Assembly: GCA_963717935.1 (NCBI GenBank)
Contig: CAVQXP010000004.1
Location: 576,001 to 640,000, forward strand
Origin: Candidatus Eiseniibacteriota bacterium
GTDB lineage: Bacteria; Eisenbacteria; RBG-16-71-46
Direction: 5' to 3'
Length of the DNA stretch: 64,000 nt
Part shown: piece by piece, positions 6,166 to 32,758 of the stretch
How the letters are laid out: each line of letters opens with the position of its first letter
Numbering within the stretch: position 1 is the first letter of the stretch
Notes under the pieces: generated by a model
Told to the model about the DNA's origin: nothing
The model's database searches: none
What the model saw: the letters and a program-made list of their open reading frames with translations, nothing else
Made by a program: the position numbers and the translations under genes

Positions 6166-6211
6166 CGCAAGCGACGTGCCCGGATCGGACGAACGGCCGC
6201 GGCGCCCGTTC

Positions 6212-7117
6212 CTATCGCCCTCCGTGCAACGGGAATTCGGTGCGTGCCGCGCGAGAAAGGCGCAGCTCGTCGATGCCCCCGTCGAGCGCGTACCAGGGCG
6301 CCGTGTCGGCCGTGGGCCCCTGACGCAGGTCGCCGCCGAAGTTGGTGAGGAAGCGCGCGTCGAAGAAATTGCCCACCAGCAGCGGGGCCTGGCTCACGCG
6401 GATGCGCCCCGAGGTCGCGAAGGTGCCGTCGGGCTGGCCGTCCAGGAAGAAGCGCACGACCTGGCCGTCGAACGTGACGGCCACGTGGGTCCAGCGCTGC
6501 AGCTCGATCTTGCTCAGGGAGTAGAACACGCGGGGCGAGCCCGCGTCCTCGGGCTGGAAGACGAACAGGAGCCGGCCAGCCTCGACGCTCCGCACGAACT
6601 CCTGGTGCCACAGGGGGCCGGTGCCGGCGCCGAACTCGGCGGGCCGGAGGGCGGCGGGCAGGTTGGAGCCGACGACGGAGAACATCCAGCTGTGCTCCGC
6701 GGTCGTCGGCGACCACCGGGTGGCGATGGGGGAATCCTCGTACGGCGAATAGGCATTCGGGGCGATCCACGCCTCGACGGTGAGCGCCGACTGCGAATCG
6801 AGCAGCGAGCTGTAGGGCACATGGAGGAACGAGTTGGCCGAGAGCGTGAACAGCCGCGCGCCCCGGAAGCGGCCGAAGATGGTACGGGTGTCCGGGCCGG
6901 CGGTGGCGTCGAGCCGTGACGGACCGGCGTCGGCCGCGTAGAGGCTGCCGGTCTCGTCCATCCGCCACAGCGCCACCGTGACGGAATCCACGGGGGTGCC
7001 GGGCAGGTCGGCCGTGAGGTCGGGCGGTTTCGCGTTCTTCGCGCACGCGGCGAGCGCGAGCAGGCCGAGGGCGGCCGCGAGCACGCGGCCGGCGGAGCCG
7101 CGGCGGGTCCGGCTCAC
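6212..7117 (-). CDS. LamG/concanavalin-like jelly-roll lipoprotein
   Basis: Lipobox LAAC; LTVEAWI, WTHVAVTFDG, FFLDG and GGIDELRL LamG-3-like motifs. Confidence 0.85.
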   Translation of the reverse strand: MSRTRRGSAGRVLAAALGLLALAACAKNAKPPDLTADLPGTPVDSVTVALWRMDETGSLYAADAGPSRLDATAGPDTRTIFGRFRGARLFTLSANSFLHVPYSSLLDSQSALTVEAWIAPNAYSPYEDSPIATRWSPTTAEHSWMFSVVGSNLPAALRPAEFGAGTGPLWHQEFVRSVEAGRLLFVFQPEDAGSPRVFYSLSKIELQRWTHVAVTFDGQVVRFFLDGQPDGTFATSGRIRVSQAPLLVGNFFDARFLTNFGGDLRQGPTADTAPWYALDGGIDELRLSRAARTEFPLHGGR

Positions 7118-16030: not shown

Positions 16031-19000
16031 TCACGAACAGCCCAGGGATGTCCCGCAGTTGAGGCACTTGTAGCAGGTGCCGTTGCGGATGGTGATGTGT
16101 CCGCAGTTGTCGCACAGTGGCGCGTCGCCCGGGAACTTACCGAGCTGGGCATCCGGACCGCTCTCGACGCCATGCGCCTCCATGCGCGCCCGGACCGCGG
16201 ACGGTGCCGCGGACGGTGCCGCAGCGTGCGTCCCGCCGCCGCCGTTCTCGGCCGTGCGGTGCTCGCGTCCCACGGGATGACCGATGGCGTGGACCTTCGG
16301 CTGGCCCACCAGGCTCTCGTCCACGATGTGCGCGAGATCGGTGCGGCCGAGGTACTCGATGCCGAGCACGCGGAACACGTAGTCCACGACGCTGGTGCAG
16401 GCGCGGAGGTTGTCGTGCCCGTCCACGCGGCCGTGCGGCTCGAAGCGCGTGAAACAGAACTGGTCCACCAGGTCGTCGAGCGGCACGCCGTACTGGAGCC
16501 CCATCGACACGGAGATGGCGAAGCAGTTCATCATGCTGCGGAACGCGGCGCCCTCCTTGTGCATGTCGATGAAGATCTCGCCGACCGTGCCGTCCTCGTA
16601 CTCGCCGGTGCGCAGGAAGACCTTGTGCCCGCCGATGCGCGCCTCCTGCGTGAAGCCGTGGCGCCGTTTCGGCAGGCGGCGCCGGCGCAGCCTGGGCGGC
16701 GAGTTCTTCTCGGGCTCCTCGGCCCTGCGGGTCGTTGCCAGCGGCTGGCTCATCTTGGAGCCGTCGCGGTACAGCGCGACCGCCTTGAGGCCCAACTTCC
16801 AGGACTCGAAGTAGATCTTCTCGACGCCCTCGACGGTGGCCTCCTGCGGCAGGTTCACGGTCTTGCTGATGGCGCCCGAGATGAACGGCTGCACCGCCGC
16901 CATCATGCGGACGTGTCCCATGGGCTCGATGAAGCGCGACCCGTGCGGACCACAGCGGTTGGCGCAATCGAAGACCGGCAGGTGCTCGGACCGCAGGCCC
17001 GGCGCGCCCTCGACCGTGAGGTTGCCGCACACCACGGCGTTGGCCTCCTCGATCTGCGCGTCGGTGAAGCCGAGGTAGGGCAGCAGGCAGAAGCCCGGCT
17101 TCTCGCGCTCGGCGACGCTGACCCCGAGACGGGTGAGCGCGTCGTCGCCGATCATGCCGCGCGAGAAGGCGAAGCGCAGGTGGAGCGTCCCCGGCAGCGC
17201 CTCGTCGATGCGGCGGACCTCGGATTCGCGCAGGCCCTTGTGGAGCAGCACGTCGGGGTGCACGTGCGGCGCGCCCTCGAGCGTGCCGGTCCCGATCGCC
17301 CAGCGGCCGATGCGCTCGATCTCGACCTGCCCGTAACCCAGGCGGCGCAGCGCCGCGGGCACGGACTGGTTCACGATCTTGAAATGGCCGCCGCCCGCCA
17401 GCTTCTTGAACTTGACCAGCGCGAAGTCGGGCTCGACGCCGGTCGTGTCACAGTCCATCAGGAGTCCGATGGTGCCGGTGGGGGCGAGCACCGTGGCCTG
17501 GGCGTTGCGGAAGCCGTGGATGGTGCCGAGCGCGATGGCGCGGTTCCAGCACTCGACCGCGGCCTGGCGCAGGTCGCGGGGCGCGACGCGCGGGTCGATG
17601 GACTGCGCCGCCTCGCGGTGCAGGCGCATGACCTCGAGCATGCTGTCGCGGTTCTCGCCGTAGCGAGCGAACGGTCCGCGGCTGGCGGCGATCTCGGCCG
17701 ACAGCGCGTAGGCCTCGCCGGTCATGGTGGCCGTGACGCAGGCCGCGTAGGCGCGGGCGTCCTCGCTGTCGTAGGGCAGCCCCTGCACCATGAGCGCCGT
17801 GCCGAGGTTGGCGTAGCCCAGCCCCAGCGGGCGGAATTCGTGCGAGCGGCGCGTGATCTTCTCGGTCGGATACGACGCGAAGTCCACCGCGATCTCCTGC
17901 GCCAGGAAGAACAGGCGGCAGGCGTGGCGGTAGCCCTCCACGTCGAAGCTGCCGTCGGTGTGCAGGAACTTCATCAGGTTCACCGACGCCAGGTTGCAGG
18001 AGGTATCGTCCAGGAACACGTACTCGCTACAGGGGTTCGTGGCGTGGATGCGGTCGGTCGTCTTGCAGGTGTGCCACTTCTGGATGGTGTCGTCGAACTG
18101 CACGCCCGGGTCGGCGCACTGCCACGCGGCGCCGGCGATCTCGCGCCACATCTCGCGGGCGCGCAGCGTCTCGTAGACCTCGCCGGTGGTGCGGAACGTG
18201 GTCTGCCAGGGCAGATCGTCCGCCACCGCGTGCATGAAACGGTCGGGCAGGCGCACCGAGTTGTTGGAGTTCTGTCCGGAGACCGTGCCGTAGGCTTCGG
18301 CGTTGAAGTCCGACGAGTAGCCGGCCGCCACCAGGGCCGCGACCTTCTTCTCTTCGCGCATCTTCCAGCGGATGAAGTCGAGGATCTCGGGGTGATCGGC
18401 ATCGAGCACGACCATCTTGGCCGCGCGGCGCGTGGTGCCGCCGGACTTGGTGGCGCCCGCGCCCTTGTCGAGCACCTCGAGGAAGGACATCAGACCCGAG
18501 GAGGTGCCGCCGCCCGAGAGCCGCTCCATGCGCCCGCGCAGCCGGGAGAAGTTCGTGCCCGTGCCGGAGCCGTACTTGAAGACGCGCGCCTCGTTGCGGG
18601 CGAGCTCGAAGATGCTCATCAGGTCGTCGTCCACCGACTGGATGAAGCAGGCGGACACCTGCGGGTGCGAATAGGAATCGGTGGTGGTCAGGACCGCATC
18701 GGCATCGGCGTCCCAGTGGTGGTTGCCGCCCGAGCCGCTGATGCCGTACTCGTGCCACAGGCCGCAGTTGAACCACACCGGCGAGTTGAAGGCGCCGATC
18801 TGGTGCACCAGCATCCAGGCGAGCTCGGCCTCGAAGGCGTCGGCGTCATCCGGGCTCGCGAAGTAGCCACCCTGCTGCTCGCCGCTCGCGCGGAGCGTGT
18901 GCGCGATGCGATGCACGACCTGCCGCACGCTGGTCTCGTGCCCGGGTTTGCCGGGGAGCCCCGCCTTGCGGAAATACTTGCTCACCACGATGTCGGTGGC

Positions 19001-19228
19001 GAGCTGCGACCACGCGGACGGCACCTCGATATCGTCCATCTGGAAGACGACCGAGCCGTCGGGGTTCGCGATGACGGTGCGCCGTCTTTCCCACGCGATC
19101 TCGTCGAGCGGATTCACGCCCGGTCGCGTGAAACGGCGCGGCACGTGGAGTCCGGCGTGGGTGGGTGGAGCGAGCGCGGTGGTGGCGAGCGACGCGGAGC
19201 CCGCGCGGCCGGTGAGCGTCTGGGTCAT
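16031..19228 (-). CDS. nrdJ: Adenosylcobalamin-dependent class II ribonucleotide reductase
   Basis: FNSPVWFN, SACFI, TNPCSE, APTGTIG and GAISKTVN motifs; TSCPD-like C-terminal domain and CxxC/CLNCGTSLGCS tail; GGAGG RBS. Confidence 0.96.
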   Translation of the reverse strand: MTQTLTGRAGSASLATTALAPPTHAGLHVPRRFTRPGVNPLDEIAWERRRTVIANPDGSVVFQMDDIEVPSAWSQLATDIVVSKYFRKAGLPGKPGHETSVRQVVHRIAHTLRASGEQQGGYFASPDDADAFEAELAWMLVHQIGAFNSPVWFNCGLWHEYGISGSGGNHHWDADADAVLTTTDSYSHPQVSACFIQSVDDDLMSIFELARNEARVFKYGSGTGTNFSRLRGRMERLSGGGTSSGLMSFLEVLDKGAGATKSGGTTRRAAKMVVLDADHPEILDFIRWKMREEKKVAALVAAGYSSDFNAEAYGTVSGQNSNNSVRLPDRFMHAVADDLPWQTTFRTTGEVYETLRAREMWREIAGAAWQCADPGVQFDDTIQKWHTCKTTDRIHATNPCSEYVFLDDTSCNLASVNLMKFLHTDGSFDVEGYRHACRLFFLAQEIAVDFASYPTEKITRRSHEFRPLGLGYANLGTALMVQGLPYDSEDARAYAACVTATMTGEAYALSAEIAASRGPFARYGENRDSMLEVMRLHREAAQSIDPRVAPRDLRQAAVECWNRAIALGTIHGFRNAQATVLAPTGTIGLLMDCDTTGVEPDFALVKFKKLAGGGHFKIVNQSVPAALRRLGYGQVEIERIGRWAIGTGTLEGAPHVHPDVLLHKGLRESEVRRIDEALPGTLHLRFAFSRGMIGDDALTRLGVSVAEREKPGFCLLPYLGFTDAQIEEANAVVCGNLTVEGAPGLRSEHLPVFDCANRCGPHGSRFIEPMGHVRMMAAVQPFISGAISKTVNLPQEATVEGVEKIYFESWKLGLKAVALYRDGSKMSQPLATTRRAEEPEKNSPPRLRRRRLPKRRHGFTQEARIGGHKVFLRTGEYEDGTVGEIFIDMHKEGAAFRSMMNCFAISVSMGLQYGVPLDDLVDQFCFTRFEPHGRVDGHDNLRACTSVVDYVFRVLGIEYLGRTDLAHIVDESLVGQPKVHAIGHPVGREHRTAENGGGGTHAAAPSAAPSAVRARMEAHGVESGPDAQLGKFPGDAPLCDNCGHITIRNGTCYKCLNCGTSLGCS

Positions 19229-21237: not shown

Positions 21238-23334
21238 CTATGCCTCCCCGATCTTCCCGTCGCCACCGGCCTTCGCGGTCGCCCCGGCCTTCGCCTGCTC
21301 CTCGGCCTCCATGCGCGCCCACTCGGCCGGGTGCTCGCGGCGCAGCTGTTCCTCGTTGATGAGCCCTGTCACCCAGGCCCAGTTCATCGGATAGACGTCC
21401 GGGTTCAGCATGTTCTGGTAGACGTGCCAGACCAGGATGGCGACGAGGGCCAGCCAGGCCTCGTAGTAATGCACCAGCGTGGCCAGGTCGAGGACCCACT
21501 TGGGCATCCACTGGAGCGACTGGTTCGCGAACCAGAGCAGAACCCCCGTCACGGTCATCAGGATCACGCCCCAGACCAGGGACCAGTATTCCGCCTTCTC
21601 GATGTAGGTGAAGCGGTCGAAGGCCGGCGGGTCGCGGCGCAACCCCACCAGGTACAGGATGTTGGCCCCGGCCTCGCGCACGTCTCGCAGCCCCGGCAGC
21701 AGGGCGACGAAGGTGCCGCGACCGCGCCGGGTGAACAGATGGGCGACGTGCACCAGGGACGTCCCGACCAGGACGACCGCGGCGACCCGATGGATGAGGC
21801 TGCGCCAGGCGAAGGCCCCCTCCAGGCGCGCCATCCACGAGAACGGCCACGACTCGGGGAACTTGAGCGCGAAGCCGGTCCAGATCAGGGCGAAGAAGCT
21901 GATCATCAGCAGCGCGTGCTGGATCCGCTCGCTCCGGTTGGTGCGCTCGTACCAGCGCCCCAGGCCTCGCTCCGGCTCCACCTCGCCGCGGTAGAGCCGG
22001 TAGTGGCGGCGCAGCTTGCGGGTGAAGTCCAGCCCCTGATGGACGGCCATGCTCCCGCCGAGCCCGAAGATGAGCCAGAGGTAGATCAGCCGAACGTAGT
22101 AAAGGACCGGGCTGCCGGCCGTGGCGATGACGACATGCACGGGGCCCAGCGCCGACCACTTGCCGGCGCCGGGATGGCACTTGCCGCAGGTCTCGCCCAG
22201 TCGTTCCGGGTTCACCGCAGAGCGCGGGTCGCTCGAGGGCAGGATGTCGTGGAAACCGTGGCAGGAAGAGCAGTTAGCGACAGCCTTCGAGCCGCCACGT
22301 GAGGCCAGACCGTGGAAGGAATCACGATATGTCGTGAGTCGGCCGGCCGGAAGACCGTAGGTCTCGCGGAGTCCCTGGGCCTCGTGGCAACGCGAGCAGG
22401 TCGTATTCACCGCGGAGGCCACGACCGGCGAGGCTGGATCGTGGGGCCCGCGGATCAGGTGCTCGCCGTGGCAGTCCGTGCAGTTGGGCGCCGCGGTGAC
22501 GCCGCGGCGCAGCGCCTGGCCGTGGATGCCCGTTTCAAAGGCCGCGAACTCGCGGGTGTGGCAACGCCCGCAGGTGTGCGGGACGTTGGTGCGGAAGATG
22601 GATGACGTGGGGTCGTTCGCGCGCTTCAGGTCGTGGCTCTCGTGGCAGTCGCTGCAGGTGGCCGCGCGCGGGTCTCGCGAGCGCCCGTGCACGCTCTTCG
22701 TGTAGAGCGCGTAGGCCTCGGGGATGGTGATCCGGCGCCGGGTCATGAGCGCGCGGTTCGCGTGGCAGCGGGCGCAGGTGTGCGGCAGGTTCGCGCGGTT
22801 GACCGGCGAGGCGGGGTCCGTGTGCGGGCGGATCGAGTGGAATGGCCCGTGGCAATCCTTGCAGGTCGAGGCCTCGGGGTCGCCGCGCGCGAGCGCCGTG
22901 CCGTGGACGCTGCCCTGGTACTGCCCGGTCACCTGTGCGTGGCAGCCGACGCAGGCGTCCGGGCCGGTTCGCGCGGGCCGGCGCACCTGGTGCCCCGACC
23001 CGTGGCAACCCAGGCAGGCCACCTCGTGCGGGCCCGCGGCCTGCCGGTGGGCGCTGCCGGCAATGGCGGCGGTCGCATCCTGGTGACAGGTGCCACACTG
23101 GACCTGTGGCAGGGCGGTCGCATGCGGCAGGCCCTTCACGCCCCCGTGGCAGGCCACACACGCCAGCCGCCCGTGCGGGGAGGCCTCGAGTTGTGCGAGG
23201 TCCACGTACGCCGTGCCCCCGCCGGAATCGCGCGCGAGGGCTCGATCGACGTGGCAGGTCATGCACACGTCGTTGCCGAGCGGCCCGGCGAGCGCGGGCA
23301 GGGCCAGGAAGGCGGCGAGCAGCGCAGCCGCCAT
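21238..23334 (-). CDS. 13-heme cytochrome c fused to FdnI-type di-heme cytochrome b (CbcL-like)
   Basis: 13 CxxCH motifs counted; signal peptide; C-terminal RIQH, IHR..VH, EKAEYW and VHYYEA..WH; start uncertain. Confidence 0.9.
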   Translation of the reverse strand: MAAALLAAFLALPALAGPLGNDVCMTCHVDRALARDSGGGTAYVDLAQLEASPHGRLACVACHGGVKGLPHATALPQVQCGTCHQDATAAIAGSAHRQAAGPHEVACLGCHGSGHQVRRPARTGPDACVGCHAQVTGQYQGSVHGTALARGDPEASTCKDCHGPFHSIRPHTDPASPVNRANLPHTCARCHANRALMTRRRITIPEAYALYTKSVHGRSRDPRAATCSDCHESHDLKRANDPTSSIFRTNVPHTCGRCHTREFAAFETGIHGQALRRGVTAAPNCTDCHGEHLIRGPHDPASPVVASAVNTTCSRCHEAQGLRETYGLPAGRLTTYRDSFHGLASRGGSKAVANCSSCHGFHDILPSSDPRSAVNPERLGETCGKCHPGAGKWSALGPVHVVIATAGSPVLYYVRLIYLWLIFGLGGSMAVHQGLDFTRKLRRHYRLYRGEVEPERGLGRWYERTNRSERIQHALLMISFFALIWTGFALKFPESWPFSWMARLEGAFAWRSLIHRVAAVVLVGTSLVHVAHLFTRRGRGTFVALLPGLRDVREAGANILYLVGLRRDPPAFDRFTYIEKAEYWSLVWGVILMTVTGVLLWFANQSLQWMPKWVLDLATLVHYYEAWLALVAILVWHVYQNMLNPDVYPMNWAWVTGLINEEQLRREHPAEWARMEAEEQAKAGATAKAGGDGKIGEA

Positions 23335-23803
23335 CGCGTTTCCCCCGGCCCGGCGCGGTCGCGCGCGCACCACGGTCCCGGCGCGCGGGGCCGCCAGCGG
23401 TGGAGAAGCTCGGTTCACGCCGGATGGCCTCCAGAAGGAAGAGGGTGTGGCCCCCCCCCGGACAAGGAATGGACCACGGAAGACCTTTTCTGGCAAGGTC
23501 TTCAAGCGGCCAAGTCGTCAGGTGGTAACGGGGGGCCGGGATGGTACCTTCGGATGTCTTGCCAGCGAGGCGCCAATTCAGTAGAAATACTGATGTCTGG
23601 GACGGCGCGGGGCCGCTCGCCGGCTCCCCGGCCCGGTCCTGTGCAAGGAACTCGCGGCGTTCGAGCGGTCCGTAGTTCTACCGAATCTTCGACGTGTCCC
23701 TTGCCGGAATTGGTTACTCTCCGAGACAGGTCTCGTGGGTCGCACGCGACGCCTCGACCTCGTGTTCTCAGGTGGGCGGTTACCTTCAAGGCCGGAGGGG
23801 CTG

Positions 23804-24367
23804 ATGATCAAGAGCATCTTCGCGTTCGTCGTGCTGGGGGTGCTGGCGGTGGGCGCCGCGTCGCGGGCCGCGGACGCTCCGAAGGCGGACGCGCCGAAGA
23901 ACGACTACGTCGGCACGACCCTGAAGACCTGCATGTGCCACTACAAAGAGTTCAAGGCGTGGTCGGCGACCCCGCACGCGCACGCCCTCGAGACCCTGCA
24001 GGCCACCACGCCCGAGCAGCTGAAGAAGATGAACGAGCGGCTCGAGACCGCGGTGAAGGATCACCCGGAGAGTGATGCCGCGTGCCTGGGCTGCCACGTG
24101 ACCGGTTACAGGACGGGCGGCTACCCCGCGGCTGACTCGCTCAAGAACGCCGCGCTGGCTCGCGTGACCTGCGAGGTCTGCCACGGCCCCGCCAGGAACC
24201 ACCTGACGGTGCCGGCCAACGACAAGGCGGGCCGGAAGGCCTCCATGCTGGTCCCGACGGCCGAGACCTGCAAGAAGTGCCACACCGATGCCACCTCGCC
24301 GAAGTTCGACTTCGCGGAGCGGAGCCAGAAGGTGCACCCCGTCGCCGCCAGGGCGCCCGCGAAGTAA
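23804..24367 (+). CDS. c554-like tetraheme cytochrome c with 3 CxxCH and one contracted CxCH motif
   Basis: Signal peptide; YVG...CMCH...W..TPHAHA, CLGCHVTG, VTCEVCHGP and CKKCH; GGAGG RBS. Confidence 0.85.
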   Translation: MIKSIFAFVVLGVLAVGAASRAADAPKADAPKNDYVGTTLKTCMCHYKEFKAWSATPHAHALETLQATTPEQLKKMNERLETAVKDHPESDAACLGCHVTGYRTGGYPAADSLKNAALARVTCEVCHGPARNHLTVPANDKAGRKASMLVPTAETCKKCHTDATSPKFDFAERSQKVHPVAARAPAK

Positions 24368-24388
24368 GCGGACCGAAGCCGTCCGACG

Positions 24389-27229
24389 ATGGAGACCCGT
24401 ACGGGCCGGCCTGCCAGTCGCGGGCCGGCCCGCGGCCTGTTCACCGGGCTCCTCGCGCTGGCCGGAGCGCTCCTTGCCGGCGCGTTGCTCCACCCGGCGG
24501 CGTGGTCGGCGCCGGAGGCGGTGAAGCCGCTCCCCGGCGCCGAGGACTGCATGGCCTGCCACGAGGCCGGCCCGCCACTCGCGAAGCGCGACGCCGACAC
24601 GCCGCCGCGCTTCGACGCCTCCGGGCTGCGCGCCTCGCCCCACGCGAAAGTGGCCTGCGCCGCCTGCCACGCGGACCTCGAGGGCAAGGAGTTCCCGCAC
24701 GAGACGAAGCCGGCGCCGGTCCGCTGTGGCGCCTGCCATGCGACCGAGCAGCAGCAGTTCGTCGAGAGCCTGCACGGCCAGGCCGCCGCGCGCGGGGAGA
24801 AGCTCGCCCCCTCGTGCAAGGACTGCCACGGACGGCACGGCGTGCTGCCGCGCAACGACCCGCGCTCGCCCGCGAACACGGTCAACGTCCCCGCGCTGTG
24901 CGGGCGCTGCCATCACGAGGGCTCGCCGGTCCAGCTCACCTACCACATCCCGCAGGACTCGATCCTCCAGAACTACTCCGAGTCCATCCACGGCGAGGGG
25001 TTGTTCCGCAAGGGCCTGCTCACGACCGCCGTGTGCACCTCGTGTCACACCGCGCACCACGTGCTGCCGCACACCGACCCGCGCTCGAGCATCGCGCGCC
25101 GCAACGTGGCCGCCACCTGCACGCAGTGCCACGTGCGCATCGAGCAGGTGCACCGCAAGATCATCAACGGGGTGCTGTGGGAGAGCCGCCCCAACGACAT
25201 CCCCGCCTGCGTGGACTGCCACCAGCCGCACAAGGCGCGGCGGGTCTTCTATACCCAGGGCATGGCGGACCGCGACTGCCTGACCTGTCACGGCCGGCGC
25301 GAGCTGCGGGCCCAGGGCGGACGCTCGATGTTCGTGGACACGGCCGTGCTGCAGGGCTCGCGCCACGCGAAGATCGCCTGCGCGCAGTGCCACAGCGAGG
25401 CGCAGCCCTCGCACGCCCGGCCCTGCTCTTCGATCACGCGCCGGGTGGACTGCTCGGTCTGCCACGCCGGGGTCGTGGACTCCTACCGGGAGAGCACCCA
25501 TGGGCGACTGGCCGCGAAGGGCAGCCCCGACGCCCCGGCCTGCCGCGACTGTCACGGCACGCACGGCACCCTGGGGCACCTGCAGTCGGACGCGCCGACC
25601 TACGCGCGCAACGTCCCGGCGCTGTGCGGGCGCTGCCACCTGAGCGGCAAGCAGGCCCAGGTGCGCTATCGCGGGACGGAGCGCCGCGTGGTGGAATCCT
25701 ACGTCGAGAGCATCCACGGCAAGGGGTTGCTCGAGAGCGGCCTCACCGTGACCGCGACCTGCGTGGACTGCCACACCACGCACGGCGAGCTGCCGCACAC
25801 CGACCCGGCGTCCAGCGTCAACCCGGCGAACGTGGCGAAGACCTGTGCCCGCTGCCACCGGGGCATCTACGAGCTGTTCGCGGCCAGCGTGCACTCGCCC
25901 GTGGTGACGAAGACGAAGCGTCCGCTGCCCACCTGCTCCGACTGCCACTCGGCCCACACCATCAACCGCACCGACCGGCAGGATTTCAAGTTCGCGATCA
26001 TGAGCCAGTGCGGCAAGTGCCACGAGGACCTGGCGAAGACCTACTTCGAGACGTACCACGGCAAGGTCTCGCGGCTCGGCTACCTCAAGACCGCCAAGTG
26101 CTACGACTGCCACGGCGCGCACGACATCCAGCCGAACTGGGACCCCCGCTCGCACCTGTCGCGGCAGAACATCGTGAAGACCTGCGGCCAGTGTCACCCC
26201 GGCTCGAACCGGCGCTTCGCCGGCTACCTCACGCACGCGACCCACCACGAGCCGCACAAGTACCCGGCGCTGTTCTTCACCTTCTGGGGCATGACGGTCC
26301 TGCTGGTCGGCACCTTCGGCTTCTTCGGCCTGCACACGCTCGCCTGGCTGCCGCGCTCGCTCCAGTACCGGCGCCAGCTCGCGAAGTCGCAAGCCGCGGA
26401 GGGCGAGCTGCACGTGCGGCGCTTCCCGCCGCTCTACCGCAACCTGCACCTGATGGTGATCGTCTCCTTCCTCGGGCTGGCGCTCACCGGCATGACGCTC
26501 AAGTTCTCCTACACCCCGTGGGCCTACGTCCTGTCGCGGGTGCTCGGCGGGTTCCAGGCGGCGGGCTTCATCCACCGGGTCTGCGCGGGGATCACCTTCG
26601 CCTACTTCTTCCTGCACCTGCGCGACATGATCCGCCGCCGGGCGAAGTCCGGCGTGTCGTGGCGGACGTTCCTCGCCGGCCCGGGCGGGATGCTGCCCGG
26701 GCGGCGGGACCTCGAGGAGTTCTGGCAGTCGGTGAAGTGGTTCGCCGGCCGGGGCCCGAGGCCGCAGTACGGCCGCTGGACCTACTGGGAGAAGTTCGAC
26801 TACTTCGCGGTGTTCTGGGGCGTGGCCATGATCGGCTCGACCGGGCTCGTGCTCTGGTTCCCGACCCTCTTCACCCGGCTCCTGCCCGGCATCTTCATCA
26901 ACCTCGCGACCATCATCCACAGCGACGAAGCGCTGCTCGCGGTGGGCTTCATCTTCACCGTGCACTTCTTCAACACGCACTTCCGGCCCGAGAAATTCCC
27001 CATGGATACGGTGATCTTCACCGGCACCGTGCCGCTCGAGGAGTTCAAGCAGGACCGTCCGCGCGAGTACGAGGCCCTGACGGAGAGCGGCGAACTGGAG
27101 GCCCGGCTCGAGCCGGCGCCCGCGCCCCGCACGGTGCGCGCCTGGCGCATCTTCGGCTTCGTCGCTCTCTCGGTCGGCATCCTGATGGTGCTGCTGATCG
27201 TCTACGCGACGGTCTTCGGGTATCGGTAG
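24389..27229 (+). CDS. 19-heme cytochrome c fused to FdnI-type di-heme cytochrome b (CbcL-like)
   Basis: 19 CxxCH motifs counted; NLH, IHR..LH, WTYWEKFDYFAVFWG and IHSDEA..VHFFN. Confidence 0.92.
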   Translation: METRTGRPASRGPARGLFTGLLALAGALLAGALLHPAAWSAPEAVKPLPGAEDCMACHEAGPPLAKRDADTPPRFDASGLRASPHAKVACAACHADLEGKEFPHETKPAPVRCGACHATEQQQFVESLHGQAAARGEKLAPSCKDCHGRHGVLPRNDPRSPANTVNVPALCGRCHHEGSPVQLTYHIPQDSILQNYSESIHGEGLFRKGLLTTAVCTSCHTAHHVLPHTDPRSSIARRNVAATCTQCHVRIEQVHRKIINGVLWESRPNDIPACVDCHQPHKARRVFYTQGMADRDCLTCHGRRELRAQGGRSMFVDTAVLQGSRHAKIACAQCHSEAQPSHARPCSSITRRVDCSVCHAGVVDSYRESTHGRLAAKGSPDAPACRDCHGTHGTLGHLQSDAPTYARNVPALCGRCHLSGKQAQVRYRGTERRVVESYVESIHGKGLLESGLTVTATCVDCHTTHGELPHTDPASSVNPANVAKTCARCHRGIYELFAASVHSPVVTKTKRPLPTCSDCHSAHTINRTDRQDFKFAIMSQCGKCHEDLAKTYFETYHGKVSRLGYLKTAKCYDCHGAHDIQPNWDPRSHLSRQNIVKTCGQCHPGSNRRFAGYLTHATHHEPHKYPALFFTFWGMTVLLVGTFGFFGLHTLAWLPRSLQYRRQLAKSQAAEGELHVRRFPPLYRNLHLMVIVSFLGLALTGMTLKFSYTPWAYVLSRVLGGFQAAGFIHRVCAGITFAYFFLHLRDMIRRRAKSGVSWRTFLAGPGGMLPGRRDLEEFWQSVKWFAGRGPRPQYGRWTYWEKFDYFAVFWGVAMIGSTGLVLWFPTLFTRLLPGIFINLATIIHSDEALLAVGFIFTVHFFNTHFRPEKFPMDTVIFTGTVPLEEFKQDRPREYEALTESGELEARLEPAPAPRTVRAWRIFGFVALSVGILMVLLIVYATVFGYR

Positions 27230-27940: not shown

Positions 27941-29773
27941 TCAGCCCTGGTGGCACTGCGCGCACGCGGCCTGCGTGGGCCTCAACCGGCCGCCCGCCGG
28001 GTCGTGGCAGGTCTTGCATTCCAGTTCCATCGCGAGATGGGCCTCGTGGGAGAAGTCCCCGCGGAAGCTCCGCACGGTGCGCGTCTTCACGTCGGCGTGG
28101 CATTGCAGGCACGAGCCACCGGCGACCGCGGCCTTCCGATGATGGCAGGGGACACAGCCGGCCGGCCCGAAGCGCACGACTTCCCCGGGTCCGCGCTGCT
28201 CGTGCGTCCGGTGACAGGCGGCGCACTCGAGTTTCGCCTCGAGCAGGTGCGGACCATGGTCGAAGGCCTTGCCCTGCCAGGCCCCGCGCTGTGCTTCGAC
28301 GCCGGTGTGGCACAACAGGCAGCGTCCCGAACTGGCGCCCGCGCGCCGCCAGGGCGACGCGAGCGGGGCCAGTCCCTTCGCGCGGCGCGCCTCGTTCATC
28401 CGCTCGTGCGCCTCGTCGAGCAGGGCGTAGGCGTAGGTGATGTTGTGCACGGCCCGGCCCCGCGAGACCAGCAGGAAGTCGTGCCGCGCGTCCTGCCAGG
28501 CCTGCGGCGGCTCCGGGCCCATCGCGCCCGCGGTCGCCTCGAGCTGGCGCTGCAGCGCGGTGACGCGCTCCGCCGAGGCGCGCTGCCAGGACTCGAAGAT
28601 CCGCTGGTAGGCGGGCCCGTGGCAGGCCATGCAGGAGACGCCGTCGGCGCGCTGGATGACGGGCTCGAGCGGATCCCTCACGGCCCGGGCCGCTGCGGTC
28701 CTGTCGTCGTGACAGCCCCGGCAGGTGACGCCGACTGCGTACATCGGTCCGGGCATGTCGGGCACGCCGCGTCCGCCGGTGCCGGCGTAGAGGCTCTGCT
28801 GCGCGCTGTGGCCCGCGCCGTGGCAGGCGCCGCAGGCGCTTGCGTCGCCGGGGCCCGCGTCGTGCGCGTCGCCCGCCCGGGCCGCCCCCGGCGGCGTGCC
28901 GTGCTCGATGGCCAGGTGGCAGTCCGTGCAGTCCACCTTGTGCTTCGAGACGTGCCAGTCGTGCAGGTAGTCCGTGTCGCCGTAGCGCGCGAGCCGCTCG
29001 GGCTGGTTGTGGCAGGTGAGGCAGTGGGTCTGCGGCACGTCGCCCGCTCCGCGGTTCACGCCCGCGTGACACGCGGTGCACTCGGTGCCCAGGCGCGCGA
29101 CCTCGCCGTGGTCGAACGCGGTGCCGGCGGCGGTGGTGACGCGTCCCGGGACGGTGTGACAGAGCCGGCAGCGCGCGGTGCCCTGGTCCGGCGCCTGGCC
29201 CTTGAAGTGGCACAGCGCGCACGTGACCGGGGTGACCGCGATGTGGGTTCCGACCATGACCTGCGAGTGGCACGAGGTGCAGCGCAGCCGGAAGCCCTTG
29301 CGGCTCTCGGTCAGGTGGGGCGTGTGATCGAAGATGACGCCGTGATAATCGACGCGGCCCTCGAGCAGCCGGCGCTCGTGGCAGCGCAGGCAGTTGGCGT
29401 CGTCCACCTCGGCCCAGGGCTTGGTGCCATAGGTGCCGGTGAAGTACTTCACCACCATCGAGAGCGCCTCGTACTTCTTGCGCAGCTCGGCGCCGATGCC
29501 CGGCGAGATGTGGCAGTCCACGCAGGCGACCTGGTTGTGCTTCGAGGTCTTCCACGAGGCGTAGTAGGGCTTCATGACGTGGCAGGTGCCGCAGAACCGC
29601 GGCGTCGAGGTGCCCAGCATCGCCAGCAGGACGAGCACGGCGAAGAGCCCGAGCGCGAGCCCGACGGTGAGCGTGGCGACGCGCAGGCCGCGGGGCGAGA
29701 GCCGCCCGCCGCCGCGGCGGTCCACCCAGCGGCCGAGGCGGGAGTCGGGTCCGAGGCCCGGCAGCGGCGGCAT
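27941..29773 (-). CDS. Membrane-anchored 18-heme cytochrome c with N-terminal NapC/NirT/NrfH domain
   Basis: N-terminal TM, TSTPRFCGTCHVM (CxxCHxM), W.TSKH..VACVDCH; 18 CxxCH motifs counted. Confidence 0.9.
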   Translation of the reverse strand: MPPLPGLGPDSRLGRWVDRRGGGRLSPRGLRVATLTVGLALGLFAVLVLLAMLGTSTPRFCGTCHVMKPYYASWKTSKHNQVACVDCHISPGIGAELRKKYEALSMVVKYFTGTYGTKPWAEVDDANCLRCHERRLLEGRVDYHGVIFDHTPHLTESRKGFRLRCTSCHSQVMVGTHIAVTPVTCALCHFKGQAPDQGTARCRLCHTVPGRVTTAAGTAFDHGEVARLGTECTACHAGVNRGAGDVPQTHCLTCHNQPERLARYGDTDYLHDWHVSKHKVDCTDCHLAIEHGTPPGAARAGDAHDAGPGDASACGACHGAGHSAQQSLYAGTGGRGVPDMPGPMYAVGVTCRGCHDDRTAAARAVRDPLEPVIQRADGVSCMACHGPAYQRIFESWQRASAERVTALQRQLEATAGAMGPEPPQAWQDARHDFLLVSRGRAVHNITYAYALLDEAHERMNEARRAKGLAPLASPWRRAGASSGRCLLCHTGVEAQRGAWQGKAFDHGPHLLEAKLECAACHRTHEQRGPGEVVRFGPAGCVPCHHRKAAVAGGSCLQCHADVKTRTVRSFRGDFSHEAHLAMELECKTCHDPAGGRLRPTQAACAQCHQG

Positions 29774-31021
29774 CTAGCCCCTTTTCGCGGCCTGATCGCG
29801 GAAGCGCTTGAGCACGAACAGCGTCAGCAGCACGTAGAACCAGAACGCCAGGAGCACGTACTTGTGCTGGCGCAGGTTCCCGAGCTTGCCCCGGATCTCC
29901 TGCTGGACCTCCTGGCCCACCGCGCGGGCCCGCGTGGTGAAGCCGGCCACGACCTCCGGCTGCACGGAGTGCGCCGCGGGCAGAGCCTCGCGCAGATAGG
30001 TGCGCGCCTCCTCGATGCGGGCGTGATAGTCCTCGGTCGGGATGGGGATGGCGTCGGCCTTCACGACCAGCGCCACGGCCTTGTCCACCTCGTCCGCCGC
30101 CGTGCGGTAGTCGGACCCGATGCGCCGGCCCAGGTCGAGACGGCGTGAATCGCCCTCGTGGCAGAGGACGCACGAAGTCGCCAGCCGTTCGGGCCGGGTG
30201 GCCTGCACGGCGTGGGCCCCGTGGCAGGTGGCGCACTCGGGGCGCCGGCCGCCCGCCTGACCGCCGGTGGCGGCCGCGGCCGCGTGCGCGCCCGCGGCGA
30301 GGTAGCGCCGCTCGACCGTGTGGCACCGCCCGCACACCTTGATCACCGAGCCCGCGTCGGGCGGGGCGGCGCCGTGCGCGCCGTGACAGGAGACGCAGGT
30401 GGGCGCGCGCAGGTTGCTCTTCCCGGCCAACTCCTGCGCGTGCACGCTCGACTCGTACTGCCGGAAGACGTTGGGTCGCCCGCGCGGTCCCATGAGCACG
30501 GTGTCCCCGTGGCAGCGCCCGCAGGTGCGCGGGACATGGAGCGCGTACGTCGAACTCGCGGGGTCGCGGGTCGCGAGGATCTCGTGCGCGCCATGGCAGT
30601 CGGAGCACACCGCGACCCGGTCGTCGCCCCGCGCGAGCCGTCGCCCGTGCCCCGAGATCTGGTAGAGCGCGTACGAGTCCACGGGCAGGCCATAGGGGCG
30701 CATCCGGGCCTCGTCCGCATGGCACGAGGCGCAGAGCTTCGGGATGTCCCGGCGCGCGGGACGGCCGCGGTAGTCGCGGCCGTGGGCGACCGCGGCGTCG
30801 AGGCTGCGGTCGTCGCCGCCGTGGCACGAGACGCAGCGCACGCCTTCGGGGGCGTGGCGGCTCTTCTCGAACTGGACGCGCTCGGCCGGGTGACAGATGC
30901 CGCAGCGGCCCGAGGCCGCGGTGACGGCCGCCGATCCCGCCGCAGGCGCGGGCGGACCGGTCTGCGCGTGAGCGGTCGGGGCCGTGGCGGCCAGGAGCAG
31001 GAGAGCGAGCGCGGTCCTCAT
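29774..31021 (-). CDS. 9-heme cytochrome c with signal peptide and C-terminal TM anchor
   Basis: 9 CxxCH motifs; MRTALALLLLAATAPTAHA signal; C-terminal YVLLAFWFYVLLTLFVL; GGAGG RBS. Confidence 0.9.
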   Translation of the reverse strand: MRTALALLLLAATAPTAHAQTGPPAPAAGSAAVTAASGRCGICHPAERVQFEKSRHAPEGVRCVSCHGGDDRSLDAAVAHGRDYRGRPARRDIPKLCASCHADEARMRPYGLPVDSYALYQISGHGRRLARGDDRVAVCSDCHGAHEILATRDPASSTYALHVPRTCGRCHGDTVLMGPRGRPNVFRQYESSVHAQELAGKSNLRAPTCVSCHGAHGAAPPDAGSVIKVCGRCHTVERRYLAAGAHAAAAATGGQAGGRRPECATCHGAHAVQATRPERLATSCVLCHEGDSRRLDLGRRIGSDYRTAADEVDKAVALVVKADAIPIPTEDYHARIEEARTYLREALPAAHSVQPEVVAGFTTRARAVGQEVQQEIRGKLGNLRQHKYVLLAFWFYVLLTLFVLKRFRDQAAKRG

Positions 31022-31025
31022 CGCC

Positions 31026-32159
31026 CTACCTCCGTTCGAGCAGCGCGCCGAGCACGCTGAGCACGAGCCACGCTCCGAGCACGGCAACGCCGGCCAGCCG
31101 GATGCGGCGCCTTCGCGGGCGGGTCTCCTCGCCGCGCAGCCACAGCGGCATGAGCAGCACCGCGATGGCCGCCGCCAGCAGCACGAGCCCGCTCAGCCAC
31201 GCGGGCACGGGCAGGTGCTGCAGCAGGACATAGGGGGCCAGCATGTACCACGGCGGGCGCGCTCCGCCGGGCGTGGCGTAGGGGTCGGCCGCGCCGTGGA
31301 AGCGGAAGGGCAGCAGCGTGGCCAGGGTGACCAGCACGGCGAACAGGCCGACCGTGAGCATGGTCATCGAGTAGACGTGCTCGCGATAGTGGATGGTCCG
31401 CTCGTCGCGCACCGCCTCGGCCCGGCTCAGACCGACGCGCCGCAGCGTGGCGAAGGTCAGGTAGAGGAAGCCGGCGTAGAACACCGGCAGGACCATCAGG
31501 TGCAGCACGTAGAAGCGGATCAGCACGTCCGCATTCACGGTCCGTCCACCCAGCAGGAAGGCCAGCACCGGGCCGGCGATCGGGATCGCCCACACGACCT
31601 CCAGCCCGCGCACCGTGCTCCAGTAGGTGTGCGAGTCCCAGATGAGGAGCCTCCCGGTGAAGTCCGACTGGATGACCACCCAGGTCGTGGCCACCGCGCA
31701 CCACCACAGCACCTCGCGCGGGGCGCGGTACAGACCCTCCCAGAAGAACCGCAGCAGCCGCAGCACGATGACGCCCACCAGCAGCCACGAGCCCCAGGCG
31801 TGCATCTGGTGGATGAACCAGCCGCCCGGCAGGTCGCGCACGATGGTGCGCGTGCTCTCGAAGGCGGCCTCGGGCGTGGGCCGGTAGTAATAGGCGAGCA
31901 GGACGCCCGTCACGATCTGCAGGCCGAACAGGATGGCGGCCAGCAGTCCCAGCGCGCGCGCGCCGTGCGCGTAGCGGGGCACCGGCTCCGCGGCCACGTC
32001 GCGCAGTACCTCGCGCACCGGTTTCTGCGTGTCCACCGGCGTGTAGACCAGGCCGAAGTGGGTGAGGAAGGAGAAGATCTCGCTCAGGTTCACGCGCTGC
32101 TCGAGCCAGTCCACCCAGCTCCTGCGCGCGGGCGGGTCCTGCCGGCCGGGCCCGTTCAT
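31026..32159 (-). CDS. Cytochrome b of a Rieske/cytb complex (b6 plus subunit IV fused), atypical heme ligands
   Basis: QIVTGVLLAYYY.P, GWFIHQMHAW, YRAPRE, FTG.LL.WD, RFYVLH and PPWY; ATG overlaps the Rieske stop. Confidence 0.9.
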   Translation of the reverse strand: MNGPGRQDPPARRSWVDWLEQRVNLSEIFSFLTHFGLVYTPVDTQKPVREVLRDVAAEPVPRYAHGARALGLLAAILFGLQIVTGVLLAYYYRPTPEAAFESTRTIVRDLPGGWFIHQMHAWGSWLLVGVIVLRLLRFFWEGLYRAPREVLWWCAVATTWVVIQSDFTGRLLIWDSHTYWSTVRGLEVVWAIPIAGPVLAFLLGGRTVNADVLIRFYVLHLMVLPVFYAGFLYLTFATLRRVGLSRAEAVRDERTIHYREHVYSMTMLTVGLFAVLVTLATLLPFRFHGAADPYATPGGARPPWYMLAPYVLLQHLPVPAWLSGLVLLAAAIAVLLMPLWLRGEETRPRRRRIRLAGVAVLGAWLVLSVLGALLERR

Positions 32160-32626
32160 ACCTGGACGAAGATCTCGCCGGCGCGCACCGATGCCGGGTA
32201 GCCGGGCAGCGGCCGGGGCGGCGGGCCGGAGAGCACGTTGCCCGAGAGGTCGAAGCGCCCGTCGTGGCAGGGGCAGACCAGCGTCCTGCGGGCCGGGTCG
32301 TAGCCCAGGATGCAGCGCACGTGGGTGCACACCGCCGAGAGGGCCAGCACGCGCGTGGCGTCGAGGCGGATCACGTAGAAGGGCGTCACCCCGTGACGCA
32401 CGAGGCGGCCCTCGCCCACGCGATAGTCATCGAGGAGCCCCGCGCTCACCGTCCGCTCGGAGTCGCGCTCGCGCTTCTCGGGGGCCTTGAGGTAGGCGCC
32501 CACCACGGCGACGGCGCCGAGTCCCCAGAGCGCGAGGAACGCCTGCGAGAGCACGGTGAGGAAGCGGCGCCGGTCCGGTGGCGTGGACGCCGGCAGGTGG
32601 ATCGGCCGGTCTTCGGGGATCGGCAT
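32156..32626 (-). CDS. Rieske [2Fe-2S] subunit with Tat signal
   Basis: DRRRFL Tat motif plus TM; CTHVRC, CPCHDGRF and GPPPRPL. Confidence 0.93.
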   Translation of the reverse strand: MPIPEDRPIHLPASTPPDRRRFLTVLSQAFLALWGLGAVAVVGAYLKAPEKRERDSERTVSAGLLDDYRVGEGRLVRHGVTPFYVIRLDATRVLALSAVCTHVRCILGYDPARRTLVCPCHDGRFDLSGNVLSGPPPRPLPGYPASVRAGEIFVQV

Positions 32627-32729
32627 GGGACCTCGGACGGGGTCGGGGCGCAGGCCGCACGGGCGGGTTGCCGTCTCCACTGGCCTGCGGCCGGCCAGCG
32701 CCCCGCGCGTGGCAAGAAGTCCAGGCAGC

Positions 32730-32758
32730 ATCATAGTCCGGGACCCGCACCCGGCCAA
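32730..32758 (-). promoter_or_regulatory. Candidate sigma70 promoter for the Rieske/cytb operon
   Basis: Minus strand TTGGCC-N17-TATGAT. Confidence 0.5.

Follow-up and report, generated by a model that had tools for sequence, protein, structure and literature searches.

A c554-family cytochrome with a contracted CxCH motif at its first heme site, encoded beside a multiheme cytochrome c-cytochrome b fusion in "Candidatus Eiseniibacteriota"

To our knowledge, the only natural CxCH heme site characterized so far is the CKCH motif of the tetraheme cytochrome KsTH (Kuste2854) of the anammox bacterium Kuenenia stuttgartiensis. Passages of two articles (PMC7096707 and PMC8388095) describe this protein as a part of the hydrazine synthase (HZS) apparatus that exchanges electrons with HZS, and kuste2855/2856 are presented as the anammox electron-transfer module in the legend of Figure 5 of PMC8862662 and in a passage of PMC9325076. 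Other noncanonical heme c motifs of multiheme cytochromes include CX15CH in MccA and CXXCK in NrfA (a passage of PMC7096707). CbcL of Geobacter sulfurreducens is an inner-membrane quinol oxidase of extracellular electron transfer; PMC6295460 describes it as having a multiheme c N-terminal half and a HydC/FdnI-like diheme b C-terminal half. Here we describe a locus in a 64,000-nucleotide stretch of the genome of a sediment bacterium of "Candidatus Eiseniibacteriota" (contig CAVQXP010000004.1 of assembly GCA_963717935.1; hereafter, the window, whose coordinates are used throughout) in which an open reading frame (ORF) for a cytochrome of the c554 family with CMCH in place of its first CxxCH motif (ORF A) is followed by one for a multiheme cytochrome c fused to a cytochrome b (ORF B; Table 1).

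In ORF A, the contracted motif C43-M44-C45-H46 precedes the canonical motifs CLGCH, CEVCH, and CKKCH, and all eight Cys residues of the protein lie inside these four motifs. Residues 1 to 24 are hydrophobic and resemble a Sec signal peptide; the database copy of the protein (P0001) has the identical start site. ORF A matches the Pfam family PF13435 (Cytochrome_C554) with 62.5 bits against a cutoff of 20.8 (E value, 7.6e-17) and reaches 60.3 bits, against a cutoff of 400, with the NCBIfam model NF043010 for the Nitrosomonas-type CycA equivalog, and is assigned here as a family relative of CycA and not its orthologue. A profile built from 33 family members matches cytochrome c554 of Nitrosomonas europaea (1bvb; E value, 1e-30) over profile positions 34 to 182, which include all four heme sites, with the first CSSCH of c554 falling on the CxCH site. 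The initial annotation had placed CMCH at the first c554 motif, after YVG and before W..TPHA, with three canonical motifs behind it, and this is where the profile alignment puts it.

A six-frame translation of the whole 3.0-Mb genome yields 4.8 million residues, among which the pattern C.CH is found 44 times. Nine frames carry at least two CxxCH motifs (84 motifs in total), and the CMCH of ORF A is the sole C.CH among them. In contigs from three sequencing runs of three studies, the 12 bases at positions 23930-23941 are covered and are free of indels and listed substitutions, and the same motif is present in two other genomes of the genus (G004 and G005). CMCH is neither a chance match nor an assembly error.

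In a large protein search, 18 of the 77 homologues listed have C.CH at the first site. Seventeen of these (16 with CMCH and 1 with CVCH; 68 to 100% identity to ORF A) are the closest matches and come from several data sources; the 18th is an outlier, P0039, with CKCH. The 17 CxCH sequences form a single clade in maximum-likelihood trees (support of 97 in the Shimodaira-Hasegawa-like approximate likelihood ratio test) that is nested among sequences with CKMCH and CMPCH; P0006, which the motif regular expression left unlabeled in one tree, has CMCH in its sequence. In the sample of eight genomes of the genus, CMCH orthologues are found in the genome analyzed here (G000), G004, and G005 (78 to 100% identity), CKMCH orthologues, at about 60% identity and with the same divergent multiheme neighbor gene, in G001 and G002, and only weak matches in G003, G006, and G007, which are 81 to 87% complete. 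A wider tally gave a match in 60 of 61 genomes, including one flagged as unpublished (G038), on which no specific claim is based. An artifact had been considered from the start, should homologues or reads show CxxCH; instead, contigs of three independent runs and the homologues keep CMCH or CVCH, and conservation of CxCH among relatives extends over the 17 clusters of this one clade.

ORF B starts 21 nucleotides past the stop codon of ORF A. It has an N-terminal signal or anchor, 19 CxxCH motifs up to approximately residue 620, with no variant motif, and a transmembrane FdnI-like cytochrome b domain at approximately residues 627 to 946. In an alignment, His687, His729, His844, His859, and His864 of this domain are shared with two anammox cytochromes b. 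Of 8,000 scored candidates, more than 4,500 are homologues of ORF B at E values of ≤1e-10; the top 120 have lengths of 883 to 991 amino acids and identities of at least 64%, and the closest named ones come from "Candidatus Eisenbacteria" (80% and 74%). The initial description of the next gene as a 19-heme protein fused to an FdnI-like cytochrome b, 21 nucleotides away, is confirmed, with FdnI models that match weakly and below their cutoffs. The divergently oriented ORF C, of similar design, scores above the PF01292 cutoff, with 60.5 bits, and is a conserved neighbor of ORF A orthologues; translation of ORF C probably begins not at the listed TTG but farther downstream, close to the hydrophobic stretch formed by residues 54 to 78.

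The anammox module was examined in a genome reached via a "Candidatus Scalindua" locus, after which the order of that genome was sampled. In the HZS cluster, the gene for a c554-family tetraheme protein with CKCH is followed by one for a heptaheme, C-terminally anchored cytochrome c, by one for an FdnI-like cytochrome b, and then by HZS-B-like, HZS-C-like, and HZS-A genes (PF18582; E value, 1.3e-16), a layout that matches KsTH/Kuste2854 and kuste2855/2856 of the literature. The anammox tetraheme protein passes the PF13435 cutoff with 40.1 bits, and BLASTP aligns ORF A with it at 30% identity (E value, 6e-13), placing CMCH on CKCH. Residues 413 to 663 of ORF B match the anammox heptaheme protein (E value, 3e-27) and residues 672 to 911 match the anammox cytochrome b (42% identity; E value, 2e-67), to which the b domain of ORF C is more distantly related (32%). 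The HZS_alpha domain (PF18582) was not found in G000, G004, and G005 (93 to 96% complete) and was found in both anammox genomes tested. Judging from these alignments, the likeness of the locus to the anammox module is one of homology, but here the heme c portion is larger and forms a single protein with the b portion. The initial annotation had pointed to a CxCH tetraheme protein encoded near a multiheme cytochrome and an FdnI-like cytochrome b in the HZS cluster, an arrangement now seen both in anammox genomes and in the passages cited above; its suggestion of a similar module without anammox genes also stands, as all three anammox proteins have homologues here and HZS_alpha was not found in the genome, and the searches against the KsTH and c554 families recovered both relationships.

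CKCH is present in all 25 genomes with a match among the 26 genomes of the anammox order that were searched. At the level of KsTH-type clusters, 62 of the 68 have CKCH, 5 are fragments without the region, and 1 (P0419; 44% identical) has CKTCH. One candidate for KsTH, the c554-like match of "Candidatus Scalindua arabica" at positions 4981-6399 of locus L026, was rejected as a UshA-like fusion protein with CAACH. It and many other anammox matches are proteins of approximately 470 amino acids in which a metallophosphoesterase/UshA-like part precedes a c554-type domain whose motifs are canonical; these fusions correspond to NCBIfam NF041198 ("UshA-like (seleno)protein"), and several of them contain an in-frame TGA.

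With respect to cytochrome c maturation, ResB was found in none of the five genomes of the genus tested and CcmE in four, the exception being a 54% complete genome. CcmC, CcmE, and CcmF are encoded together in G000 at C4:1759370-1761440, 1.16 Mb from the window, and Ccm (System I) was the only system found there. All five anammox genomes tested encode ResB and none encodes CcmE, which assigns them to System II. A single CcmF is encoded in G000 and two each in G004, G005, and the CKMCH genome G001, so that no extra lyase tracks the motif. Likewise, no extra PF01578 gene accompanies CxCH in the genus genomes compared. Since Ccm is the sole system found, heme 1, if attached, would be attached by System I.

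The motif and its conservation, the homologies, the order of the genes, and the set of maturation genes are direct observations. The reading that we derive from them, and consider fairly probable as a whole, is as follows: ORF A is a tetraheme c554-type cytochrome that carries a heme on CMCH, forms a quinol-linked module with ORF B, acquired its contraction independently, and is matured by Ccm. In this scheme, ORF A and ORF B would be cotranscribed, and heme 1 would be bound through thioethers from Cys43 and Cys45, with His46 as the proximal and probably His133 as the distal ligand, having been attached by the only maturation system of the genome, Ccm (System I). ORF B would be a membrane protein with 19 c-type hemes fused to a diheme FdnI-like cytochrome b, whose b domain would exchange electrons with the quinone pool while its heme c wire would conduct them through the periplasmic side. 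ORF A could then serve as a soluble shuttle to or from periplasmic partners, according to the presumed direction of electron flow. The two proteins would thereby make up a quinol-linked module comparable to the one that supplies hydrazine synthase with electrons in anammox bacteria (KsTH plus kuste2855/2856), with a CbcL-like architecture, in which the contraction might have a tuning effect on heme 1.

Several observations weigh against this scheme. The AlphaFold model of ORF A has a mean predicted local distance difference test (pLDDT) value of 67, with values of <50 over residues 24 to 44, so that the geometry of the motif cannot be checked on it, and its best Foldseek match, c554 (1ft6), is a weak one (probability, 0.99; template modeling score, 0.48; E value, 0.038). 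In the profile alignment, it is Phe98 of c554, not its distal His102, that stands opposite His133. The invariance of four residues when half of the columns are invariant is modest evidence, with a probability of about 0.06 by chance. A second maturation system could be missed in a genome that is 93% complete. ORF B reaches 23.2 bits with PF01292 (cutoff, 30.1) and 27.6 bits with TIGR01583 (E value, 2.5e-6; cutoff, 115.85). In the approximately unbiased (AU) test, forcing the ORF A clade and the anammox clade into a joint clade lowered the log likelihood by 16.6 with a P value of 0.077, which does not reject such a clade at the 0.05 level. Finally, covalent attachment of heme 1 at CMCH and physical interaction of ORF A with ORF B are predictions.

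Within the CxCH clade, 80 of the 161 columns of the mature protein are invariant, including those of Cys43, Cys45, His46, His58, His133, and His178, and column 42 varies (Thr, Ser, Gly, or Ala). ORF A has three conserved His residues outside the motifs for its four hemes. Cytochrome c554 has three bis-His hemes and one five-coordinate heme, i.e., likewise three extra His residues; the heme ligation in KsTH reportedly (Ferousi et al., 2019) includes His/Lys and His/Cys pairs. His133, which 90% or more of the aligned family members have, is probably the likeliest distal ligand of heme 1 because of its position after the third motif. The conserved residues and the His pattern favor a functional heme 1 site, short of proof of attachment. 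The heme might also be bound by a single thioether, through Cys45 and His46, leaving Cys43 free or otherwise used. Two thioethers across one residue imply a strained geometry, and, as far as we know, System I has never been shown to process CXCH, nor was such a case found in a partial literature search. Cys43, however, is invariant in all 17 clusters next to the variable column 42, an unbound Cys next to a heme site is not what one expects in the periplasm, and KsTH, with its CKCH, is described as a functional tetraheme protein in passages of PMC7096707 and PMC8388095. We therefore view single-thioether binding as unlikely, although worth keeping in mind, and retain attachment through both cysteines as the preferred reading.

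The column alignment suggests how the contraction arose. The column that holds the first Cys in the relatives contains Thr, Ser, Gly, or Ala in the ORF A clade, and the next one, with Lys, Met, or Arg in the relatives, contains Cys; one residue is added upstream, for a net gain of one codon. Given that the first Cys is shifted one position toward CH and a residue is added before it, the change is not a simple deletion. Residues 130 to 132, adjoining His133, carry clade-specific substitutions, too. A plausible route leads from CRMCH, which is seen in relatives, via CCMCH to xCMCH and would require only single-base steps. The contraction would thus have arisen in a subclade of one genus, probably "Candidatus Eisenbacteria," from a CKMCH/CRMCH ancestor by movement of the first Cys by one position, independently of the anammox CKCH. 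In the latter, three residues separate a conserved Gly/Ser from the first Cys and a residue is lost between the cysteines; five residues precede the first Cys in the ORF A clade. The two clades are separate, with supports of 97 and 100, and ORF A, at 30% identity, falls outside the KsTH clade.

These data very probably point to a contraction in the ORF A clade that is independent of that in KsTH and not inherited. Its alternative is a CxCH shared with KsTH by descent or transfer, with the CxxCH of the close relatives representing reversions. The identical site and module would suit such a history, and the AU test fails to reject the joint clade (P = 0.077). It would, however, have to account for the nesting of the ORF A clade among CKMCH and CMPCH proteins at 60 to 74% identity, including two same-genus genomes, compared with only 30% to KsTH types, for the different solutions of the contraction in the two clades (three versus five residues before the first Cys), and for the well-supported branches of a wider tree, which force at least four changes. 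A common origin therefore strikes us as quite improbable.

It is similarly improbable that the first-site heme has been lost and that ORF A is a triheme protein with CMCH as a decaying remnant. Although the motif is noncanonical and the model has low confidence around it, Cys43, Cys45, His46, and His133 are kept down to 68% identity, and the contraction itself persists in each of the 25 matching anammox genomes as well as in 62 of the 68 KsTH-type clusters, 5 of the 6 exceptions being fragments. Moreover, KsTH, the biochemically studied member of the KsTH type, is described as a tetraheme protein (passages of PMC7096707 and PMC8388095). An artifact of sequencing or assembly, with a codon lost from CxxCH, is already refuted: 17 clusters from several sources, the genomes G004 and G005, and the contigs of three runs all have CxCH, and by the local alignment a codon has on balance been gained and not lost.

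CxCH also occurs at the first site of other members of the family. P0039, with CKCH, sits on a long branch; its halves resemble different relatives, and it may be chimeric. P0148, a metagenomic protein of 851 amino acids, consists of three tandem c554-type domains with CGCH only in domain 2 and CxxCH in domains 1 and 3. P0459 has CICH at the first site on a long branch of its own. In a tree of 68 rows, the labeled rows need 4 changes of motif length and the well-supported branches force at least 4; the regular expression left 14 rows unlabeled, including 10 KsTH-type rows and P0459. Otherwise, the contraction is rare. C.CH is found in none of the 86 first-site motifs from distant genome loci, a broad sample (≤39% identity among the matches listed) in which 75 of the 80 loci have a recognizable core. 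Of 17,916 family representatives, the best 150 include two with C.CH at this site; one more C.CH string among them belongs to CCECH. We tentatively propose, while leaning slightly toward doubt, that the c554 heme 1 site is a hot spot of CxxCH-to-CxCH change that has been kept at least four times independently and is matured here by ordinary Ccm without a dedicated lyase. The cases counted for this are the anammox CKCH, the CMCH/CVCH of the ORF A clade, the CKCH of P0039, the CGCH in domain 2 of P0148, and the CICH of P0459.

Table 1. Coordinates of ORF A, its heme motifs, and neighboring cytochrome genes in the window
Feature	Position	Strand	Basis
ORF A, c554-family periplasmic cytochrome, 187 amino acids, four heme motifs	23804-24367	+	ORF list, Pfam
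Contracted heme 1 motif C43-M44-C45-H46, TGC ATG TGC CAC	23930-23941	+	Sequence, in frame with ORF A
Heme 2 motif CLGCH, residues 94-98	24083-24097	+	Sequence
Heme 3 motif CEVCH, residues 123-127	24170-24184	+	Sequence
Heme 4 motif CKKCH, residues 156-160	24269-24283	+	Sequence
His133, candidate distal ligand of the CxCH heme	24200-24202	+	Alignments; ligand role predicted
ORF B, 946 amino acids, 19 CxxCH plus C-terminal FdnI-like cytochrome b	24389-27229	+	ORF, motif, and domain scans
ORF C, 13-CxxCH cytochrome c fused to FdnI-like cytochrome b	21238-23505	- (divergent)	Domain and motif scans
Rieske protein	32156-32758	-	Adjacent operon 27941-32758
b6-like cytochrome b; ExtP is the nearest NCBIfam model, with a score under its cutoff	31026-32330	-	Adjacent operon
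9-heme cytochrome c, C-terminal anchor	29774-31087	-	Adjacent operon
18-heme NapC/NirT-type cytochrome c	27941-29773	-	Adjacent operon

The segment 21238-31192, of approximately 10 kb, contains five of the nine multiheme frames and 62 of the 84 CxxCH motifs of the genome and is the main cytochrome island of the 3.0-Mb genome. The adjacent operon that encodes the Rieske protein resembles a bc-type complex with multiheme c subunits and is reminiscent of the anammox multiheme Rieske/cytochrome b complexes; it is listed as context, and no functional link to ORF A or ORF B is implied. The CPCH of the Rieske protein is the [2Fe-2S] ligand box usual for such proteins; outside the cytochrome c context, C-x-C-H by itself does not indicate a heme. 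Elsewhere in the genome, a second c554-domain protein is encoded outside the window at C4:1196873-1198324 (a frame of 483 amino acids with 4 CxxCH motifs; PF13435 E value, 5.3e-16) and 6-heme and 10-heme proteins at C4:1028863-1032681; these three might be redox partners. The window also encodes a B12-dependent ribonucleotide reductase of class II that carries a TSCPD domain (16031-19228, minus strand), and the high G+C content produces long spurious ORFs on the opposite strand across it.

The sole indel in the ORF A contigs of the three runs is a 15-nucleotide loss of a repeat unit at position 23879. It lies in a tandem repeat at 23865-23895 (DAPKA/DAPKN, just past the signal peptide), whose copy number varies among strains, with one unit fewer in the contigs of two runs and in homologues of 182 amino acids. 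Contigs of a metatranscriptome run (X4) are approximately 94% identical over the ORF A gene and are not counted as expression, as an RNA library can contain DNA. A scan for promoters and terminators found nothing above expectation.

The functional CKCH of KsTH was known beforehand; the notable features here are the probable independent origin of a contraction at the same site in the same kind of module, the existence of close CxxCH sisters, and the System I host. A partial search of the literature found no report of the ORF A clade, of repeated contraction at the first site of c554, or of CXCH being processed by System I. The paper on KsTH is said to report CXCH cytochromes in many phyla of bacteria and archaea, which would lower the novelty. 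The ORF A clade would provide a second, independently evolved CxCH lineage beside KsTH, the latter coming from a hard-to-grow System II organism, and its same-genus CxxCH sister proteins offer a natural matched pair for the effects of contraction on attachment, potential, and partner recognition. System I is also the system of Escherichia coli expression strains, so that Ccm attachment to CXCH is directly testable. If the idea of a hot spot served by Ccm proved true, it would extend the natural substrate range of System I, and the contraction may then be an adaptive way of tuning the heme through which electrons enter or leave such quinol-linked modules. The anammox electron-transfer module appears as part of a widespread, well-conserved module, which bears on the origin of the electron supply of hydrazine synthase. 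As to annotation, the initial claim that standard CxxCH counting would miss this heme holds in that CxxCH-only counts come out too low for ORF A; it does not extend to all heme-motif searches, since at least one published pipeline already includes CXCH (a passage of PMC11218250).

Among the described systems, cytochrome c554 of N. europaea (CycA; 1bvb/1ft5/1ft6) is, of those with solved structures, the one that best matches the family profile, and it shares with ORF A the motif order, the W-x3-H-A sequence after motif 1, and the three His residues outside the motifs. It differs in having the canonical CSSCH at site 1, in being longer than ORF A, and in its genomic partner, which is hydroxylamine oxidoreductase for CycA and a quinol-linked multiheme/cytochrome b protein for ORF A. 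CbcL resembles ORF B and ORF C in architecture, all three having the same layout, but has 9 CX2CH motifs, fewer than ORF B (19) and ORF C (13). The motifs of MccA and NrfA, like CMCH, are departures from CXXCH in multiheme cytochromes; they need a dedicated maturation protein that is usually encoded nearby, whereas CxCH comes with no extra lyase gene. The KsTH orthologues, like ORF A, are c554-family tetraheme proteins with a signal peptide, C-x-C-H first and three CxxCH motifs behind it; their genes, too, immediately precede those for multiheme cytochrome c and FdnI-like cytochrome b sequences, which are homologous to ORF B. In the anammox module, however, the 7-heme protein and the cytochrome b are products of separate genes, in contrast to the fused and expanded 19-heme ORF B, and the cluster holds hydrazine synthase, whose HZS_alpha domain was not found in the ORF A genome. 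The anammox genomes tested use System II and the ORF A genome uses System I. In KsTH types, another conserved Cys follows just behind the motif (CKCH-x3-C) and His133 has no counterpart, whereas ORF A has no spare Cys and keeps that His. The CKCH of the former appears to have lost one of the residues that separated its cysteines, whereas the CMCH of the latter appears to stem from a shifted Cys and an upstream insertion.

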